Shown here: one piece after another, positions 1-36,898 of the stretch
Layout: each line of letters opens with the position of its first letter
Numbering within the stretch: the first letter of the stretch is position 1
Assembly (NCBI GenBank): GCA_050253335.1
Contig: JBFWJG010000020.1
Coordinates: 1-37,929 of the forward strand
Source: Deferribacterales bacterium
GTDB taxonomy: Bacteria; Chrysiogenota; Deferribacteres; Deferribacterales; Geovibrionaceae
Length of the DNA stretch: 37,929 nt
Direction: 5' to 3'
Made by a program: the position numbers and the translations under genes
The notes under the pieces: generated by a model
Told to the model about the DNA's origin: nothing
Database searches by the model: none
Seen by the model: the letters and a program-made list of their open reading frames with translations, nothing else

Positions 1-264
1 CGGAAGGCGCGTCCTGCGCCGTTCGTTTACACTTCTTCCTTGTTGCCGTGTTTGAAAATCTGACGCTCAAGGAGCCTGTCGTAACCGCTCTGACATACCA
101 GTAAAAATCCGTACATCATGTCGGATTTTTACACACGCTCGCGCCGCTTAAAAAGCGGCTTCGCTGCGCACGGCGGAAGGCGCTTCCTGCGCCTTTTCGT
201 TTACACTTCTTCCTTGTAGCCGTGTTTGAAAATCTGACGCTCAAGGAGCCTGTCGTAACCGCTC
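1..264. repeat. Imperfect tandem repeat (period ~174 bp) made of the last 64 bp of the yhaM-like gene plus a downstream palindromic element; truncated by the window start
   Basis: 27-90 matches 201-264 with one substitution (44 T vs 218 A). 1-26 matches 174-200 with one substitution plus one substitution/indel. Confidence 0.95.
91..200 (-). repeat. Three-hairpin extragenic element, yhaM-locus copy
   Basis: Hairpins at 101-132 (GTAAAAATCCG/CGGATTTTTAC), 143-159 (GCCGCTT-AAA-AAGCGGC) and 177-195 (AAGGCGC-TTCCT-GCGCCTT). Core 132-177 is shared with 5468-5513 and 5618-5663. Confidence 0.9.
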
Positions 265-1133
265 CAGCCTGCGTCCTGAACCTCGTCCTTAACGAAGATA
301 GATGAAAATGTGTTTATCTTGGCATCCATATCATCAATGTGGTGAAGGATAAGTGCTTCTATTGTCTTAGGTTTTTTAGGTGAGCCGAACTCAAGAAAGC
401 CGTGGTGGCTCGCTATCATATGGCAGATCAGATCCTTAACCTCTTCGGGAAAGCCCTCGACCTTATCCGCCATGTTCCTGAAAAGCATGATTCCCTGAAT
501 AAGGTGACCGAGAAGTTTGCCGCTGTTGGTGTAGTCAAACCCGAGCTTTGAATCAAGCTCGACAATCTTGCCCATATCATGGAAAAGCGCGCCGAAAAGC
601 AGATGCTCAGTATTCGCCTTTTCCCCGTAGTAATCACCGATAAGCACCGCAAGCTTGGCAATGCTCAGCGTGTGCTCAAGCAGTCCGTTGACATAGGCAT
701 GGTGCACTGCTTTTGCGGCCGGACTCTTTTTAAATTTATCAATAACTTTTTCATCGGCAAAAAACATGCTGATGAAAGATTTCAGGTAATCCGTTTTAAT
801 TCTCTCATCAAGCAGATCCTTCAGCTCCTTCATGAGCTTATCGGCATCAAGACCGCTGGTCGGGAGAAACAGTGAAGGATCCGCGTCCTCCTTTTTCTCC
901 ATCATGGTTATTTTGAGCTGAGTCTGCCCCGCATACTGCTGAAGAACACCCTCAAGGGTTACAACATCCCCGCCTGCGGGCTCAAAAGCCAGCCTGTTGC
1001 TGTCAAACATGATGCCGTTGTGCCTTGTGCCTTCGCTGTCGTTCAGCACGAGACGCAGAAAGGGTTTGCCGTCCCTTGTGACGTTCTTGTTTATGTCTGT
1101 GATCATAAAGTCTTTCTTAATAGTAAGTTCCAT
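201..1133 (-). CDS. YhaM/Cbf1-like 3'-5' exonuclease (OB-fold + HD domain)
   Basis: N-terminal OB-like region (GKPFLRLVLNDSEG), SPAAKAVHHAYVNGLLEHTL, FHDMGK, SHHG and HHIDDMDAK HD-family motifs. Confidence 0.85.
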   Translation of the reverse strand: MELTIKKDFMITDINKNVTRDGKPFLRLVLNDSEGTRHNGIMFDSNRLAFEPAGGDVVTLEGVLQQYAGQTQLKITMMEKKEDADPSLFLPTSGLDADKLMKELKDLLDERIKTDYLKSFISMFFADEKVIDKFKKSPAAKAVHHAYVNGLLEHTLSIAKLAVLIGDYYGEKANTEHLLFGALFHDMGKIVELDSKLGFDYTNSGKLLGHLIQGIMLFRNMADKVEGFPEEVKDLICHMIASHHGFLEFGSPKKPKTIEALILHHIDDMDAKINTFSSIFVKDEVQDAGWSGYDRLLERQIFKHGYKEEV

Positions 1134-2497
1134 TATCTACCGCCTACAGTTATCAAAGGAATACGCAGAGTCGGCTGTGCATCGGAAACAGGAACACCCT
1201 GCCCGCCTTTGCCGCAGGTTCCGATTCCGAAGCCGAGATCGGTTCCCGCCATATCAATGCTCTGCATCACTTCAGGTCCGTTGCCCATGAGTGTGGCATT
1301 CTTCACCGGCCTGTCTATCTGTCCGTTTTTTATTAAATAGCCTTCGGTTACTTCAAAAACAAAGTCGCCGTTGACCGTGTTTACCTGTCCGCCGCCCATA
1401 TCAGCCACATAAATTCCGTTATCAACGGATTTTATTATGTCTTCCGGTCTGTCATTTCCGGGGGCTATGAATGTATTCGTCATGCGCACTATGGGCTTGT
1501 GCCTGTAGCTTTCCCTCCGGCCGTTGCCTGTGGGGGCTCCGCCGTTTTTGAGCGCGTACAGCCTGTCACGCATATAGCCTTTAAGAATTCCATTTTCTAT
1601 CAGAACATTGCGCGCCGCGTCCGTTCCTTCGTCATCAAAGGGGATGTAGCCCCTCTTCTGTTTAAGTGTTCCGTCATCTATCACGCTGATAATCCGGTTC
1701 GCTACCTGAGTCCCGATTTTATCTTCGTAAACACTCATCCCCTCTTCCGCCAGATCAGCCTCAAGCCCGTGCCCCACAGCCTCGTGCACCATTGTTCCGC
1801 CGGCCTTTGAGGCAAGCACAACGGGCATTCTCCCTGCGGGAGCGTAATCTGCGGCAAGATTGTTAAGCGCCTTTCTCAGCGATTCCCTGCCTATTTTTTC
1901 AGGCTCAAAGCCGTCCAGCCCTTCCGCGCCGAAAACTCCGCCGAAGGATTCATAACCGGTTTGCAGGTCATCGCCCTCTCTGGCGACCGTATTTGCGTAT
2001 ACCGTTATGTAGGACAGCTTCTTGGTTTTATCATCTCCGAGGGAGTTGATAATCCGCACATCACGGAAAACATCGCCGTAGAAAGCGCGCACCTGAACGG
2101 TTCTTTTGTCGCCGTAGGCAGAGCGGCTAACGGTTTCGGCAAGCTTTATCTTATCCTGCAGAGGGATTTGCTCGCAAGGCCTCTCGAATGTGTAAACCGG
2201 AGCTGATTTTGTGAAGTCGAGTACTTTCTCGGCGCCCTTTTCACCAAGGGCAGTAAGCCCGCAGGCTATTTCATTGAGCACATCGGGATCTGATGAGTTG
2301 GTATATCCGTAGAAAGTTCTGCCGTTTCTGATGAGCCTGAGCCCTATCCCTGCGTCATCCTCGCTGGAAAGCGTGTCTATTTTGCCGTCCTCGAAAACAA
2401 TAATGCGCCGGAAAGAGCTCTCTATGAAAATATCCGCATAGTCCCCGCAGGAAGCGAGTTTTTTAAGAATGCGGGCGTAATCAGGTGTTTTTACCAA
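1133..2497 (-). CDS. tldD: TldD/PmbA family metalloprotease (TldD-type)
   Basis: HEAVGHGLEAD zinc motif, FDDEG, TGNGRRESY, RMTNT, GTCGKGGQGVPV; TTG start. Confidence 0.92.
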   Translation of the reverse strand: MVKTPDYARILKKLASCGDYADIFIESSFRRIIVFEDGKIDTLSSEDDAGIGLRLIRNGRTFYGYTNSSDPDVLNEIACGLTALGEKGAEKVLDFTKSAPVYTFERPCEQIPLQDKIKLAETVSRSAYGDKRTVQVRAFYGDVFRDVRIINSLGDDKTKKLSYITVYANTVAREGDDLQTGYESFGGVFGAEGLDGFEPEKIGRESLRKALNNLAADYAPAGRMPVVLASKAGGTMVHEAVGHGLEADLAEEGMSVYEDKIGTQVANRIISVIDDGTLKQKRGYIPFDDEGTDAARNVLIENGILKGYMRDRLYALKNGGAPTGNGRRESYRHKPIVRMTNTFIAPGNDRPEDIIKSVDNGIYVADMGGGQVNTVNGDFVFEVTEGYLIKNGQIDRPVKNATLMGNGPEVMQSIDMAGTDLGFGIGTCGKGGQGVPVSDAQPTLRIPLITVGGR

Positions 2498-2739
2498 TTA
2501 TCAACTTCCTCACTGAATTCCGTTCTGATTTCCGTAACGCCGATGCCGATTTTATTCAGCTCTTCCAAAACTTTGAGAAGCTGTTTATACACGGTGTCCG
2601 TGGAGTAGATAACCACATTCCCCTTGGCGCTGTCCAGTGTGCGGACTATGCCGAGCCCTTCGTATGAGTCAACGAGGCTGTTGACAAGAAGGATGTTGCG
2701 CTTGTCCACATGGCACTTAACTTTTACGGTACGGGTCAT
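2491..2739 (-). CDS. Small conserved protein, DUF4911-like
   Basis: 82 aa with DSYEGLGIVRTLD motif; overlaps both neighbours in the operon. Confidence 0.65.
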   Translation of the reverse strand: MTRTVKVKCHVDKRNILLVNSLVDSYEGLGIVRTLDSAKGNVVIYSTDTVYKQLLKVLEELNKIGIGVTEIRTEFSEEVDNW

Positions 2740-3130
2740 CTGCGAATTCCATCAGCACTATTTCAATACCCTTGAGCTCGTCCTGAAGCTCTTTCACATC
2801 AAAGTTAAGGGCATTTTCCAGATATATCTTCTTAAAGCCCGCGTCCTTCACCTTTTCAGCGAATTTTGCGGGAGCAATCGAGTTAAAGTCGGTAACGAAG
2901 AAACCTTCCTCCTCAAAGAAGCCTGTGCTCCTGAGAAAAAGCCATTCCTCCTGTATAAACCTTCTCTCCTCCGCGCTGAGGCCGGAAAGAACTCTGTTCA
3001 GACCGCCGTAGTAAAAGAGATCAAGCTTTGCGGACATTCCCCTGCATTTGAGCTCGGCCACGTTGTAGTCGAGAAATGCTGGAAACAGCCCTTTGTTGTG
3101 TAGACCGACCTTAGCCTTGTTCATTTTCAC
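2717..3130 (-). CDS. Hypothetical protein
   Basis: 137-aa ORF filling the gap between nusB and the DUF4911-like gene with short overlaps; no family recognised; start may be ATG at 3124. Confidence 0.7.
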   Translation of the reverse strand: MKMNKAKVGLHNKGLFPAFLDYNVAELKCRGMSAKLDLFYYGGLNRVLSGLSAEERRFIQEEWLFLRSTGFFEEEGFFVTDFNSIAPAKFAEKVKDAGFKKIYLENALNFDVKELQDELKGIEIVLMEFADDPYRKS

Positions 3131-3554
3131 CCGCCGAAAGGCTGTAGGTTTTTCTTACATTGTCCAGAATTCCGTTAACAAGCCCCGCCGCGGCTTCGTC
3201 GCCAAATTTTTTGGTGAGCGTCACGAAGTCGTCAAGTACGGCAAAATAAGGGGATTTGCCGTCCAGAAGCTCATACAGGGCAACACGCATAATGTTTTTC
3301 TCTATCTCGCCCATTCGCTCAAAAGTCCAGCCGTTTTTAAGAAATTTTTCTATCACAGCGTCGCTGTCGGCGGCTTTTGCGGCGGCTCCGCGGAAAAGGC
3401 TCTCCGCGAAGTCCTTAACCTCCGGCTCCACTACGCCGAGCGGCTGCCAGAAAGTAAGGGGGATCTGCGTCGGCGTTTCCCCTGTCATACCGTAACGGTA
3501 CATCATCTGAAACGCGTATTCGCGCGCCTTCGTGCGTTTTGATTTATCAGCCAA
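3111..3554 (-). CDS. nusB: Transcription antitermination factor NusB
   Basis: [29 protein letters not shown]; follows ribH as is usual. Confidence 0.92.
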
Positions 3555-4020
3555 GTTTATTGTCCTTAATGAGATTTACAAGCTCAAGCGCTCCCATTGC
3601 GCAGTCGGCGCCTTTGTTTCCGCTTTTTGTTCCCGCTCTTTCCACTGCCTGCTCGATTGTGTCTGTGGTGAGAACGCCGAAGATAACAGGCACGCCCGTA
3701 TCAAGGGAAACCTTGGCAACGCCCTTTGAAACCTCAGCGGCCACAAAGTCGAAGTGAGGCGTTGCGCCCCTGATGACAGCGCCGAGGGTGATGACAGCGT
3801 CATATTTCTTGGTAAGAGCAAGCTTCTGAGCCACAAGGGGAATCTCAAAAGCGCCGGGGACCTTGAACACATCGATGTCCTTCTCTGCCGTGTTGTGTCT
3901 CACAAGCGCGTCAACAGCACCGCCGATAAGCGCCTGTGTGATGAAATCATTGAAACGGGAAGCCACTATGGCAAACTTAAACCCTTTCCCGTCATATTTT
4001 CCTTCTATAGCCTTGATCAT
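3547..4020 (-). CDS. ribH: 6,7-dimethyl-8-ribityllumazine synthase
   Basis: [48 protein letters not shown]. Confidence 0.97.
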
Positions 4021-4077
4021 TAGGAACTCCTTAGATGTTTAATTATATTTTATTCTGAATGTACACATTTCAAAGTT

Positions 4078-4145
4078 GAGAATCTTCGCATCCGCTCAGA
4101 GTGACGCGGTAATGCGTCATTCTGAGGCTTCTGCCGAAGAATCTC
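4078..4145. repeat. REP-like imperfect inverted repeat in the ribBA-ribH intergenic region
   Basis: GAGAATCTTCG..CTCAGAGTGACGC (4078-4107), 6-nt loop, then GCGTCATTCTGAG..CGAAGAATCTC (4114-4145). Confidence 0.85.
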
Positions 4146-4166
4146 TCATTCTGTAACATCAAACCC

Positions 4167-4193
4167 CACGGCGCTGTTCCATCCATGGAACAG
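4167..4193 (-). repeat. Truncated copy of the post-stop-codon element (CACGGCG + CAT-CC-ATG hairpin)
   Basis: CACGGCG at 4167-4173, then perfect inverted repeat CTGTTCCAT-CC-ATGGAACAG, 4 nt from the ribBA stop; same layout as 5655-5681 and 169-200. Confidence 0.75.
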
Positions 4194-4197
4194 AAGA

Positions 4198-5412
4198 TTA
4201 TAAATCCAGTTTATGCCCCATTTTGTCCTTTTTAGTAAACAGATATTTTTCATTTTCGGGGTTGAGGTCGCTCAATGTGCCCACACGCTCCACAACCTCA
4301 AGCCCGTAGCCGGAGAGGCAGCGCATTTTCTTGGGGTTGTTGGTAATCAGGCGGATCTGTTTTATCCCCAGATGCCTGATGATCTGCGCTCCGAAGCCGT
4401 AGTCACGCAGGTCTTCGTTAAAGCCCAGATGAATGTTCGCCTCTATGGTATCAAGCCCTTCGTCCTGAAGGTGGTAAGCGTTGATTTTATTGAGGATGCC
4501 TATTCCGCGCCCCTCCTGAAACAGATAGAGCACAACGCCTCTTCCTTCCTTCTCCACACGGTCCATCGCTTCATGAAGCTGAGAGGCGCAGTCGCACCTT
4601 CTGGAACCGAATACGTCCCCTGTGAGGCATTGGGAATGAACACGCACAAGGACGGGTTCATCTGTGGTGACATCCCCTTTCATGAGAACAACCGCCTCCT
4701 GACCGTCCGCAACGCTTCTGAATCCGAGGATGTTAAACTCGCCCGCATGGGTGGGGAGCCTTGCCACGTTTGTTTCTTCTATGAGCTTTTCATGATCCAT
4801 CCTGTAGGAGATGAGATCCGCTATTGTAACTATTTTAAGCCCGTGCACCCCTGCGAATTCATCAAGCTGGGGCATTCTGGCCATTGTGCCGTCATCGTTC
4901 ATAATCTCGCAGATCACTCCTGCGGGTTTGAGTCCTGCGGCCTTCATGAGGTCAACGGAGCCTTCGGTCTGCCCCGCGCGGACAAGCACTCCCCCCTGCC
5001 TTGCCCTGAGCGGGAAGACATGGCCGGGTCTGGCGAGATCCTTTGAGGTGGACTTGTCGTCAATGGCGACTCTGATAGTGTGCGCCCTGTCAAACGCCGA
5101 GATTCCCGTGGTAACCCCTTCTTTTGCCTCGATGGAGACAGTGAAGGCAGTGCCGAAGCGCGCGGTGTTTCCGTCTCCGCCCACCATGAGGTTGAGCCCC
5201 AGCCTGTCGCAGCGGTCTTCCGTCATGGCAAGGCAGATAAGCCCGCGCCCGAATTTCGCCATGAAGTTTATGGACTCCGGCGTCACGTGCTCAGCCGCAA
5301 GAACAAGGTCGCCCTCGTTCTCCCTGTCTTCATCATCCACAAGGATGATCATCCTGCCCTGTTTAAGGTCTGCTATGGCTTCATCTATTGTTGCCAGATT
5401 TTTATATTTCAT
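4198..5412 (-). CDS. ribBA: Bifunctional DHBP synthase / GTP cyclohydrolase II
   Basis: DDEDRENEGDL, RPGHVFPL, RVHSQCLTGDVFGSRRCDC, QEGRGIG, TNNPKK. Confidence 0.97.
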   Translation of the reverse strand: MKYKNLATIDEAIADLKQGRMIILVDDEDRENEGDLVLAAEHVTPESINFMAKFGRGLICLAMTEDRCDRLGLNLMVGGDGNTARFGTAFTVSIEAKEGVTTGISAFDRAHTIRVAIDDKSTSKDLARPGHVFPLRARQGGVLVRAGQTEGSVDLMKAAGLKPAGVICEIMNDDGTMARMPQLDEFAGVHGLKIVTIADLISYRMDHEKLIEETNVARLPTHAGEFNILGFRSVADGQEAVVLMKGDVTTDEPVLVRVHSQCLTGDVFGSRRCDCASQLHEAMDRVEKEGRGVVLYLFQEGRGIGILNKINAYHLQDEGLDTIEANIHLGFNEDLRDYGFGAQIIRHLGIKQIRLITNNPKKMRCLSGYGLEVVERVGTLSDLNPENEKYLFTKKDKMGHKLDL

Positions 5413-5427
5413 ACAAAAACACCTTTA

Positions 5428-5727
5428 TACTTTACTGCTCGTGTTTGCCTTCCATGGAAACACTCGCCACACGCTCGCGCCTTGTGGAACAAGGCTTCGC
5501 TCCGCACGGCGGATTTCCATCCATGCAAATCTTACAGCATATCAAGAAGTGAAGTTATGTTCTTCCCTTCCTTTTTCTACTTTACTGCTCGTGTTTGCCT
5601 TCCATGGAAACACTCGCCACACGCTCGCGCCTTGTGGAACAAGGCTTCGCTCCGCACGGCGGATTTCCATCCATGCAAATCTTACAGCATATCAAGAAGT
5701 GAAGTTATGTTCTTCCCTTCCTTTTTC
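5428..5727. repeat. Perfect 2 x 150 bp tandem repeat: 104-bp three-hairpin element plus the last 46 bp of ribE
   Basis: 5428-5577 is identical to 5578-5727; 5532-5577 duplicates the ribE 3' end including TAA (5682-5727). Confidence 0.97.
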
Positions 5728-6305
5728 ATTAGCTTTTCAAGATAGCGCGCTATCACGTCCGCTTCAAGGTTAACTTTGTCCCCTCTCCGCTTATCCGAGA
5801 GGACAGTCTCCTTAAAAGTGTGCGGAATAACAGCAACATCAAACGTAAGTCCGTTAACCCATGCCACAGTGAGGCTTATGCCGTCCACGGCAACGGAGCC
5901 CTTCTCGGCAATATATTTGTCCATCTCCTCAGGGAACCTTATCCGCAGTACATAGGAATCACCTTTGGGAGTTATTGAATCCACTGTTCCGAGCCCGTCC
6001 ACATGGCCGCTGACAATATGTCCGCCGAGGCGGGTGGTAAGCGTCAGCGCCCGCTCAAGATTCACGCGGGTTCCGGCGGCGGCTCCCGAGAGGGATGTGC
6101 GTTTCAGCGTTTCGTATGATATATCCGCGCTGAAACTGCCGTCCGTTATCTCCGTTGCGGTGAGGCATACACCGTTTACCGCTATAGAATCGCCGATTTT
6201 TGAATCCTCAAGCACCTTGGAGCACCTGATTCTGATTACGGCGGAATTTCCTTTTATATTCAGGGAATCTATCTTCCCTGTTTCCTCTACAATCCCCGTG
6301 AACAT
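5682..6305 (-). CDS. ribE: Riboflavin synthase (alpha chain)
   Basis: N-terminal MFTGIVE, GDSIAVNGVCLT, VNLERAL, GGHIVSGHVDG, KGSVAVDGISLTV. Confidence 0.97.
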   Translation of the reverse strand: MFTGIVEETGKIDSLNIKGNSAVIRIRCSKVLEDSKIGDSIAVNGVCLTATEITDGSFSADISYETLKRTSLSGAAAGTRVNLERALTLTTRLGGHIVSGHVDGLGTVDSITPKGDSYVLRIRFPEEMDKYIAEKGSVAVDGISLTVAWVNGLTFDVAVIPHTFKETVLSDKRRGDKVNLEADVIARYLEKLMKKEGKNITSLLDML

Positions 6306-7459
6306 CTGTTCCTCAGTTTTTCGGTCAGGTCAAGCACATGGGTTCGGTAGTCGGTAAAGCGTCCGCTGATCAGTATGTCATTTTCGAAATGCCTTATGTC
6401 AGTTTCCAGCATTTCTTTTGCGTCAGCAACAAGTTCCACACCGGCGCCCGTCACAGTCATTACGGCGTCACGCCCTCCGATAACTTTCGGGGCGATAACA
6501 AAATAACCCTTATCAACCAAATCCGCGTCAAAAAAGGCTCCGGCGGTTTCGCCGCCCCCTTCTATGAGAATATTCATTATCTTCATTCCGAGAAGCTTGC
6601 CGGAAAGCTCACGCAGGTCAAGTCCGCCGTTTATGCAGGAAACCTCAAGCACATGAGCGCCCTTTTCCCGCAGACGCGCCGCAGAGGCAGTTTGAGCCCC
6701 TTTTTCCGTGACATAAACCAGTTTATCAGGATTTTCCTCGAGCTTCCTGCCTTCGGGCATCCTGCCGTGAGGATCGAGAACAATTTTATAAGGATCATTT
6801 TCGGAATAAACATCCCTGACAGTGAGCTGCGGGTCATCGGCTATGACAGTATTCACGCCGACCATAACAGCATCTGAGACACTGCGGAGGTAATGAGCAT
6901 AGACCCTTGCGGAAGGGGATGAAATCCACTTGGAATCCTTGGTTCTGGTGGCGAGCTTGCCGTCTATGGATGTTGCGGTTTTCAGCGAGTAATAGGGCAG
7001 TCCGGTAAGGATTCGTTTGGTAAAGTCCTCAATAAGCGCGGCGCAGAGCTCCTCACGATAGCCGAGGAAAACTTCAATGCCATGTTCCATGAGAATATTG
7101 AGTCCGTTTCCTGCGTTCACCGGATTGGGATCAACGACACCGACAAACACACGCTTTATTCCTGTTTCTATGATTTTATTGACACAAGGGGGCGTTTTCC
7201 CGTGATGGCTGCAAGGCTCAAGGGTCACATACAGATCAGCGCCCCGAACATCTCCGGCATCGGCTATTGCCATTACCTCAGCGTGAGCCTTGCCGTATTC
7301 TGAGTGCCAGCCGCGGCCGATGATTTTTCCGTCCTTCACCACAACAGCGCCAACTATGGGGTTGGTTTTTGTAAACCCCTTTCCCGCCAGAGCGAGAGAG
7401 GCGCATTCATCCATTATATCAAGAGGATTTACGGTTGAACTCAACTTTGGTTTCCTCAC
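6287..7459 (-). CDS. ribD: Bifunctional pyrimidine deaminase/reductase RibD (true start may be slightly downstream)
   Basis: NPIVGAVVV, HAE, TLEPCSHHGKTPPC, SIDGK, DDPQLT, EGGG. Confidence 0.95.
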   Translation of the reverse strand: MRKPKLSSTVNPLDIMDECASLALAGKGFTKTNPIVGAVVVKDGKIIGRGWHSEYGKAHAEVMAIADAGDVRGADLYVTLEPCSHHGKTPPCVNKIIETGIKRVFVGVVDPNPVNAGNGLNILMEHGIEVFLGYREELCAALIEDFTKRILTGLPYYSLKTATSIDGKLATRTKDSKWISSPSARVYAHYLRSVSDAVMVGVNTVIADDPQLTVRDVYSENDPYKIVLDPHGRMPEGRKLEENPDKLVYVTEKGAQTASAARLREKGAHVLEVSCINGGLDLRELSGKLLGMKIMNILIEGGGETAGAFFDADLVDKGYFVIAPKVIGGRDAVMTVTGAGVELVADAKEMLETDIRHFENDILISGRFTDYRTHVLDLTEKLRNRCSRGL

Positions 7460-36329: not shown

Positions 36330-36587
36330 ATGAACAAAACCAGACTCAATATCAGCATCGATCAGGATATTGCAGACTTTGCCAAGGATTTCGCAAGCGA
36401 AAACCGCACCACGGTTTCTGATATTATAACCCAGTATTTTCTTGCGGTTAAACGCAGAAAAGAAGGTGAATCAGCAGAACGCATACTGGCAGATCCGGCA
36501 TTCAGCGCAGCACTTGAAGAAATGCAGGAAAAACTGAGAACAAACAAAGCCCGCTGGCATTCATACGATGAGGTATTCGGCGGATGA
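36330..36587 (+). CDS. Putative antitoxin (ribbon-helix-helix, DUF6364-like)
   Basis: KTRLNISID...AK.FA.....TVSDII RHH-like N-terminus, C-terminal WHSYDEVFG; ATGA overlap with the next gene. Confidence 0.75.
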   Translation: MNKTRLNISIDQDIADFAKDFASENRTTVSDIITQYFLAVKRRKEGESAERILADPAFSAALEEMQEKLRTNKARWHSYDEVFGG

Positions 36588-36898
36588 ATCAGGCTCTTTT
36601 TGAGGAAGCATTTCTTAAAGACCTGAAAAAACATCAATCCATAAAAAAGATTATCCAAAAAAAAGTCGACATGATTCTGTCAGATCCGGCTGCAATGGGA
36701 GAACCGCTGAAAGGCAATCTCCGAGGGTTTTATTCCTGCCTTGTTAAGCGGAATTTTATCATAATATATCTTTACTGCCGCTTATGCCGCAAAAAAGGTG
36801 ATGATAAGCATGTCATGTGTGCGGATTGCGATGATACAGGGAGTGATACAGTAAAATTTGTGCTCCTCGGACCCCATGATGACGCATACGGAATATAA
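36584..36898 (+). CDS. Putative RelE/ParE-superfamily toxin with a Cys4 insertion
   Basis: FLKDLKK, GEPLKGNLRGFYS, FIIIY, C-terminal LGPHDDAY; CRLC...CADC insertion. Confidence 0.75.
   Translation: MNQALFEEAFLKDLKKHQSIKKIIQKKVDMILSDPAAMGEPLKGNLRGFYSCLVKRNFIIIYLYCRLCRKKGDDKHVMCADCDDTGSDTVKFVLLGPHDDAYGI

Follow-up and report, generated by a model that had tools for sequence, protein, structure and literature searches.

A three-hairpin repeat element that directs duplication of the adjoining upstream DNA in a genus of Deferribacterales

A repeat element of approximately 105 nucleotides (nt), built of three hairpins with GGA loops, directs duplication of the DNA that adjoins it: one break is fixed, lying past the last hairpin, the other is variable and falls at a GA dinucleotide, and control hairpins are without such duplications. 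The element is described here from a 37,929-nt stretch (the window) of a Deferribacterales bacterium (Geovibrionaceae; GCA_050253335.1, contig JBFWJG010000020.1), in which it follows a yhaM-like gene and the riboflavin synthase gene ribE and, in truncated form, ribBA. The genome of the window is denoted G000; G027, G028 and G029 are those of sister species, making four genus genomes in all.

On the sense strand, hairpin 1 is followed by a 17-nt core of invariant sequence, then by hairpin 2, a 10-mer that is likewise invariant, hairpin 3 and, last, a linker of about 10 nt. The loops of hairpins 1 and 3 read CA-N-GGA-N-G or CA-GGA-N-G and resemble CsrA-type sites; csrA itself is found in 16/16 family genomes. 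In an alignment of 66 copies, the G and A of the hairpin 1 GGA are invariant (66/66 rows) and the hairpin 3 loop nearly so. Stem positions are paired in 92.7% of cells, with compensatory change in 23 of 26 pairs, far over slid controls. Watson-Crick pairs make up 1545 of 1706 stem cells, G-T pairs (36) being no commoner than A-C combinations (31); such stems behave as DNA palindromes do. No complementary terminal inverted repeats were seen by eye at the element ends (alignment A1). Seventeen copies in G000 are long variants with an internal module; this module is palindromic, and its core recurs in a different repeat family across many phyla, a Rickettsia record (L266) among them. The first codons of the open reading frame of a phage-like gene contain a distant relative of the element (L152, genome G060, 1500-1610).

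Junction rule and genomic placement

Junctions were surveyed in G000 and in 102 sister clusters, with 68 further clusters, fetched later, serving as a held-out set. A copy of the upstream DNA follows 191 of 330 elements, the other 139 being without detectable duplication. These copies represent 135 distinct events, from which 31 that start in hairpin 3 or earlier (remnants of older copies) were excluded, leaving 104 (offset at least 30) for testing. In 76 of these the junction lies 40-48 nt after the invariant 10-mer, approximately 10 nt past hairpin 3, and 21 of 32 held-out junctions fall within the same window. A GA stands at the start of the copy (position 0 to -2 relative to the break) in 35 of 55 cases and in 12 of 16 held-out ones, against a background of 23%. 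The linker preceding the junction has the consensus AA-R-W-C-A, followed by GA; of 46 sequences, 33 have A at -6, 32 have A at -5, 31 have C at -2 and 32 have A at -1. The estimated length of the duplication is 8-92 nt (median about 45; 53 events), and the codon phase of the GA (18, 0, 9) does not differ significantly from background (P 0.08).

The rule is specific to the element. Searching the upstream DNA of other loci yields 0-4/136 copies, and the reverse-complement control 0/136; none of 182 terminator-like perfect hairpins behind stop codons is followed by an upstream copy, and two other hairpin repeat families have scattered rather than fixed junctions. Of 67 genes with a strict-pattern element, 14 have an exact 15-mer from their last 60 nt repeated within 260 nt; of 2109 genes without one, 7 do, and all seven contain variant elements, so that 21/21 gene-tail duplications in G000 enclose an element.

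Two further junction types were observed. Where the upstream break falls within GATCA, the junction is usually GC or GT rather than GA (seven rows, some of them orthologous and one keeping GA: C41, C26, C79 and C10 of G000, and loci L098, L099 and L110); methylation or restriction of GATC would be a guess at the cause. Events with an offset below 30 form a second repeat class, whose starts lie within hairpin 3, in its loop or its 3′ arm, and which resembles a left-hand copy truncated at that point.

In the window, positions 1-264 and 5428-5727 both read, on the gene sense strand, tail, element, tail copy, element. The features are as follows.

201..1133, minus strand: yhaM-like HD-domain gene (top NCBIfam match YhaM, score under the YhaM cut-off); stop codon 201-203; the duplicated tail is the last 64 nt, 201-264
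91..195, minus strand: element, short variant, behind the yhaM-like gene; hairpin 1 177-195, invariant core 159-175, hairpin 2 143-159, invariant 10-mer 133-142, hairpin 3 101-132, 10-nt linker to the junction 91-100
27..90, minus strand: displaced yhaM tail copy, 64 nt, starting with GA and ending with the stop codon; one mismatch, non-silent
1..21, minus strand: hairpin 1 of the second yhaM element, interrupted by the contig end
5682..6305, minus strand: ribE (riboflavin synthase alpha); the duplicated tail is the last 46 nt, 5682-5727
5578..5681, minus strand: first ribE element, immediately behind the ribE stop; hairpin 1 5662-5681, core 5645-5661, hairpin 2 5629-5645, 10-mer 5619-5628, hairpin 3 5587-5618, 9-nt linker 5578-5586
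5532..5577, minus strand: displaced ribE tail copy, 46 nt, starting with GA, 46/46 identical to the ribE end
5428..5531, minus strand: second ribE element, a variant identical to the first
4198..5412, minus strand: ribBA, downstream of the ribE array
4167..4193, minus strand: truncated element behind ribBA, hairpin 1 and 7 nt of core only

A sequence-only reading of the window had described this four-part arrangement at both loci, with tail copies that begin with GA 10 nt (yhaM) and 9 nt (ribE) past the last hairpin, as well as the truncated element behind ribBA; all of this is present in the sequence. At the ribBA locus of G027 and G028 a full element and a tail copy are found. That reading needs correction on two points. 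The pattern is genome-wide and not confined to a pair of loci, and the second yhaM element runs on into contig C47 as a longer variant that is not a copy of the 91-195 element; G029 also has this long variant behind yhaM. Because the second element is a different, longer and older variant, the short yhaM element was put in front of it.

Behind ribBA, at 4076-4146, lies a member of a second repeat family (GTCA...GAAG-A-TCTC type, CGTC-like), whose pattern has 120 matches in G000; 47 of these matches lie no more than 250 nt from the three-hairpin element. Elsewhere in the window, two small adjacent open reading frames of 85 and 104 amino acids (36330-36898) resemble, by eye, an antitoxin-toxin pair.

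It is most improbable that chance slippage at microhomologies, or mis-assembly, accounts for these arrays. The G000 assembly is fragmented (142 contigs), often breaking at the element, and the copy number at ribE is uncertain; in run X1, however, the 150-nt ribE unit forms one contig at a depth of 33.6, compared with 8.2-12.9 in the flanks, a value above, not below, that of two copies, although X1 may be the source of the window DNA and thus not independent of the assembly. Since the unit depth exceeds the flank depth, the ribE array is real, and its unit is probably present about three times rather than twice. The closed genome of a sister species (G029) contains many such arrays and obeys the same rule, as do the held-out loci, and the controls described above are close to zero. 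Slippage does not account for the breakpoints themselves. In 25 of 35 GA junctions no shared base precedes the GA on its 5′ side; 10 of 35 have 3-5 nt of microhomology, GA included. The ribE and yhaM arrays are not an assembly artefact.

A profile built from G000 (E<=0.01) detects 169 copies in 101 clusters of that genome and none in the reversed genome; 49 clusters hold 2-5 copies, all arranged head-to-tail (mixed strands in 0/49). Strict-pattern copies number 92 in G000, 88 in G027, 65 in G028 and 220 in G029, with zero in the remaining 64 of 68 phylum genomes, whilst a covariance model (only 57 candidates scored per genome) finds weaker relatives in 27/68. A viral scan gave four matches, all by chance; a metagenome scan gave 53 stretches, of which the real ones come from a further strain of the same genus and the rest are chance; and a scan of a genome collection with the long-variant core gave at least 78 stretches, mostly of a different palindromic family, with few flanking duplications.

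Placement relative to genes is non-random, as the sequence-only reading had anticipated: in 76 of the 90 G000 clusters with an upstream gene, the element has the same orientation as that gene, and in 28 of these 76 it begins within about 15 nt of the stop codon. Between co-directional genes, the element is sense in 44 cases vs 8. In closed G029, the element sense strand coincides with the leading-strand sequence, which is the template of the lagging strand, in 56 of the 66 clusters fetched, with replichores assumed (GC skew agrees) and with a strand bias that is confounded with gene direction; it remains so at 14 of 17 convergent-gene loci, and in head-on operons the element follows the gene four times and replication four times. 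Leading-strand sense is found in 28 of 38 cases overall in G000. Transcription and replication direction both seem to matter. We infer that the position behind stop codons is mostly a survival filter, in that only events leaving one intact gene end or start persist.

Products and donors of the duplications

That the element drives copying of upstream DNA is borne out by the fixed and GA breaks and by the negative control hairpins; the product, however, is simpler than the four-part array from which the idea came. The basic product is tail-element-tail, the second element being optional, and many loci read tail-element-tail-downstream. Of 31 tail-element-tail cases, 11 have a tail copy that stops exactly at the hairpin 1 foot, the others stopping earlier or entering the hairpin. 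The G000 orthologues of L049, L098 and L121 lack the element and run straight from the tail into the downstream DNA, which fits duplication on arrival, but also later loss. Among sister loci, the element is kept at the orthologous site in 45/102, and 35 sites are ‘empty’, many of them with remnants; presence, copy number and tail length all vary between sister species. Independent events at ribE have duplicated 46 nt in G000 and 13 nt in G027, and a like insertion occurs in run X5, so one locus can be hit repeatedly. (RNA runs X5 and X10 consist of contigs from related strains and inform on neither expression nor RNA ends.)

The duplicated stretch is always the DNA adjoining the element on its upstream side. 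The gene tail of the original proposal is thus not intrinsic to the duplication: at L148 (G024), the following gene has had its ribosome-binding site and start codon duplicated instead.

The identity of neighbouring elements informs on the donor. Where the copy starts inside hairpin 1, the hairpin 3 of the next element differs in 12 of 26 cases; where it starts upstream of the element, hairpin 3 differs in only 2 of 31 and is the same in 29, which argues that donors need homology on the 5′ side. Two simple schemes are ruled out: purely in-cis copying as the whole story, by the yhaM and mixed arrays, and a general trans donor, as upstream-starting events are nearly always of the same variant.

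Tail copies differ from their genes by 44 silent and 27 non-silent changes (49 copies, 35 loci; P 0.007) or, after removal of the doubtful rows L006, C36 second copy and L049, by 39 silent and 12 non-silent changes (P 2e-5), against a silent-site expectation of 47% at most, with transition bias. The G000 orthologue is matched by the displaced copy in 12 cases, the working copy in 13 and neither in 5. As the differences are mostly silent and the orthologue matches equal, the displaced tails were once working alleles; this fits invasion by another allele or later ordinary allele replacement. The stop codon of the working tail is often not that of the displaced one (L098, L021, L088), and at L098 the working stop overlaps the 5′ flank of the element whilst the displaced copy retains the stop seen in G000.

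It might be asked whether the arrays are kept for a function (as a multivalent CsrA sponge, an mRNA stabiliser or a mini-array of self-derived spacers), with the duplications selected rather than mechanistically directed. The invariant GGA of hairpin 1, the near-invariant loop of hairpin 3, the compensatory changes and the retention at orthologous sites all accord with this, as does the proposal that the loops of a structured RNA family, TwoAYGGAY, are Csr/Rsm sites (bioRxiv 10.64898/2026.09.22.753630, in the parts covered). Selection for binding sites, however, would fix neither the 9-nt breakpoint window nor the GA; presence, copy number and tail length vary among sister species, and the spacers are always adjacent DNA. 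We consider such an account of the duplications improbable, and nothing suggests a functional spacer array of the kind that the sequence-only reading had likened to a mini-array.

A candidate mechanism and the search for its enzyme

We give an even chance to a mechanism in which an enzyme supplied in trans binds the hairpins of a non-autonomous, single-stranded DNA element, nicks its sense strand at N^GA and carries out strand transfer; both reactions, the enzyme itself and the sequence of events are all deduced from the junctions. The element would be a mobile repeat processed as single-stranded DNA by a nicking and strand-transfer enzyme with HUH/RAYT-like chemistry and a probably patchy distribution. 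A fixed cut would be made before GA, about 10 nt past hairpin 3, and variable cuts either before a GA roughly 8-92 nt upstream of the element or in the GGA loop of hairpin 1. Once the free 3′ end of the element is joined to the upstream GA, all DNA from that GA up to the element would be duplicated. On the 5′ side the join would be made by homology: through the gene tail if the donor is the same locus (on the sister chromosome or as the allele of another strain), through hairpin 1 and the core when it is a copy from elsewhere, and through a few shared bases at a new site. The outcome would be tail-element-tail or tail-element-tail-element, with ordinary unequal recombination then expanding or shrinking the arrays.

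Nicking of single-stranded DNA is favoured because the same dinucleotide occurs at both breaks, the stems resemble DNA palindromes and the orientation tends towards that of the lagging-strand template. There is also precedent, in that TnpA-REP is described, in the parts of the source covered, as cutting at a dinucleotide distant from the hairpin and adding units by strand transfer (PMC3333891).

Several points weigh against this mechanism. Loops that match an RNA-binding consensus, together with the sense orientation in 76/90 G000 loci, point to RNA. The replication bias is missing from convergent loci of G000 (6/11; 6 vs 5), and orthologous events were counted more than once, so that P values overstate. 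Transposition of the IS200/IS605 type is not known to create a target duplication. Neither Y1_Tnp (PF01797) nor the RAYT model (NF047646) has a match in any of the four genus genomes, contrary to the RAYT/TnpA-Y1-like enzyme once suspected, and Y2_Tnp is found in 0/16 genomes, with control genomes equally silent. No nuclease-like candidate is recognised, by eye and by BLAST against G000, beside the 101 G000 clusters and the 170 sister clusters fetched.

More broadly, searches for Y1, RAYT, Y2, IS1634, RVT_1, GIY-YIG and DUF559 identify no enzyme as a shared gene of the genus. The IS1634 transposase (NF033559) is found in 0/4 genus genomes. Each of these genomes encodes one large GIY-YIG protein, but a stand-alone GIY-YIG gene, the other nuclease type that had been suggested, is present only in G027 (1/4; L018, 105 codons), where it is flanked by repeats of another family, the GTCA...GAAG-A-TCTC type. 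A DUF559 nuclease gene occurs in G027 and G029 (2/4; L297 and L298, around 1500-1830), framed by tandem C-run/G-run palindromes that G000 has without the gene. Since both of these nuclease-linked repeat families are plentiful in G000 without their nucleases, the absence of an enzyme from one genome is compatible with a visiting enzyme.

An RNA-based route is unlikely but deserves consideration: target-primed reverse transcription would start from a nick at GA and copy an RNA whose 3′ end lies about 10 nt past hairpin 3. The RNA would be the 3′ end of the mRNA, as the sequence-only reading had it, or an element RNA, protected by CsrA and inserted in the manner of a short interspersed element (SINE) with a long, variable target-site duplication. 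The geometry would suit it well: a fixed 3′ end, a long variable duplication at a preferred dinucleotide and 5′ joins by homology, as non-LTR insertions also combine a fixed 3′ end, long variable duplications and 5′ homology joins. The tail copies that end at the foot of hairpin 1 and the element-free sites at L049, L098 and L121 are also in keeping with it, as are the ANGGA loops, the presence of csrA throughout the family and the 44 vs 8 sense orientation. Against this, the stems have no G-U excess, and a trans RNA donor predicts mixed variants wherever the copy starts, yet 29/31 upstream-starting events keep the neighbour's hairpin 3. Moreover, a reverse transcriptase (RT) is present in only one of the four genus genomes, G028 (L029, 1219-2721; 500 residues, under every NCBIfam cut-off); RVT_1 is found neither in G000 nor in G029, the genome richest in copies, and G027 has one weak match inside the open reading frame of an ABC-F ATPase. 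The best matches of the G028 RT are group II-like, Drt2, retron and Drt3a; it is possibly a defence gene.

Host replication and repair might alternatively suffice without a dedicated enzyme, a reading that we also think doubtful. A 3′ single-stranded end would be trimmed to about 10 nt from hairpin 3, which would be stable or protein-bound, and would re-prime at an upstream GA microhomology, recombination between strains and between copies doing the rest. That no dedicated enzyme was found is in its favour, and so are the lagging-template bias and the GA junctions that carry 3-5 nt of microhomology; the silent tail differences are explicable by ordinary allele replacement. The 182 equally stable terminator-like hairpins, however, never duplicate, which such repair would have to explain by a special block supplied by the element, and the scattered junctions of the two other hairpin families, the conservation of the linker sequence at junctions and the spread to more than 100 sites all speak for something beyond general repair.

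Comparison with known systems

Among RNA families, the closest resemblance is to TwoAYGGAY, the structured RNA family RF01731 of Rfam (Weinberg 2010, PMC2864571, in the parts covered). Within the parts covered, Li et al. (2026; bioRxiv 10.64898/2026.09.22.753630) describe repeats of 100-200 nt and tandem REP arrays at a fixed 3′-side position, and regard the expansion of TwoAYGGAY as mobile-element-like, leaving its mode of spread unresolved; those parts give no junction or target-duplication rule. Like TwoAYGGAY, as far as these sources describe it, our element is intergenic, has a high and variable copy number and includes two hairpins with A-N-G-G-A loops and covarying stems. Its loops fit an AYGGAY-like pattern, but with Y positions looser than the name demands, and a search with RF01731/Rfam gave 0 matches in window 1-6500 (E<=1) and in G000 and G029 (E<=0.1), control genomes being silent too. 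In contrast to TwoAYGGAY, the GGA hairpins of our element are set apart by a further hairpin and by two invariant strands, and no basal stem uniting them was seen, the element ends being variable and unpaired in folds and alignment. The element is also without the 5′ short repeats of that family, and the absence of mixed strands from its clusters (0/49) contrasts with the mostly divergent neighbours of Pseudomonas TwoAYGGAY, both points being limited to the parts of the sources covered.

The REP/BIME and REPIN repeats mobilised by TnpA-REP provide the nearest functional parallel: the parts covered of three reports describe cleavage at a dinucleotide whose distance from the hairpin varies and local amplification by nicking, extension and strand transfer (PMC3333891, PMC3116915, PMC3733652), CGTC-type repeats being described there as without known transposase (PMC3733652). 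Both they, to the extent so described, and our element are non-autonomous extragenic hairpins whose tandem clusters take in flanking DNA. Our element, however, has neither a GTAG nor a CGTC tag at its ends (alignment A1), forms no inverted doublets and has no RAYT in the four genus genomes or beside the clusters examined, and the DNA that it duplicates is unique gene sequence of about 8-92 nt with a GA start.

Mobile elements with comparable breakpoints differ in other respects. The ends of IS200/IS605 elements and of their palindrome-associated derivatives have a hairpin near each end on one strand; these elements are cut about 10 nt past the last hairpin, show a lagging-strand-template bias, are not known to make a target duplication and need TnpA-Y1. 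Our element shares this cut distance, has in G029 a strand bias of that kind that is confounded with gene direction, unlike them duplicates about 8-92 nt, and resides in a genus with no TnpA-Y1 in 4/4 genomes. Long, variable flanking direct repeats are known from non-LTR retroelements and SINEs and from IS1634-type elements. With SINEs it has in common the fixed 3′ end, the long variable target-site duplication and the 5′ homology join, but there is no shared RT and no poly(A) tail; from DDE miniature inverted-repeat transposable elements (e.g. IS1634) it differs in having no terminal inverted repeats and no IS1634 transposase in the genus.

No description of the family or of its junction rule was found in the full texts searched, a coverage from which subscription journals are largely absent. 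Tentatively, we suggest an undescribed class of non-autonomous elements in prokaryotes in which a fixed 3′ end would be joined to the target's upstream GA and the 5′ side paired by homology, a homing-like invasion of gene ends that would install a fresh tail and element and demote the resident tail; one enzyme might serve this family and perhaps TwoAYGGAY generally, with the CsrA loops hitch-hiking or regulatory. The junction rule defines substrate, cut site and product, which opens the way to finding the enzyme by biochemistry or by comparing strains. Through this process core genes acquire rewritten stop codons and 3′ ends, fossil tails accumulate in stacks, and putative CsrA sites are introduced into mRNAs. 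In how it functions the element is REP/BIME-like and in how it looks it is analogous to TwoAYGGAY, yet by the features that define membership it falls outside both.

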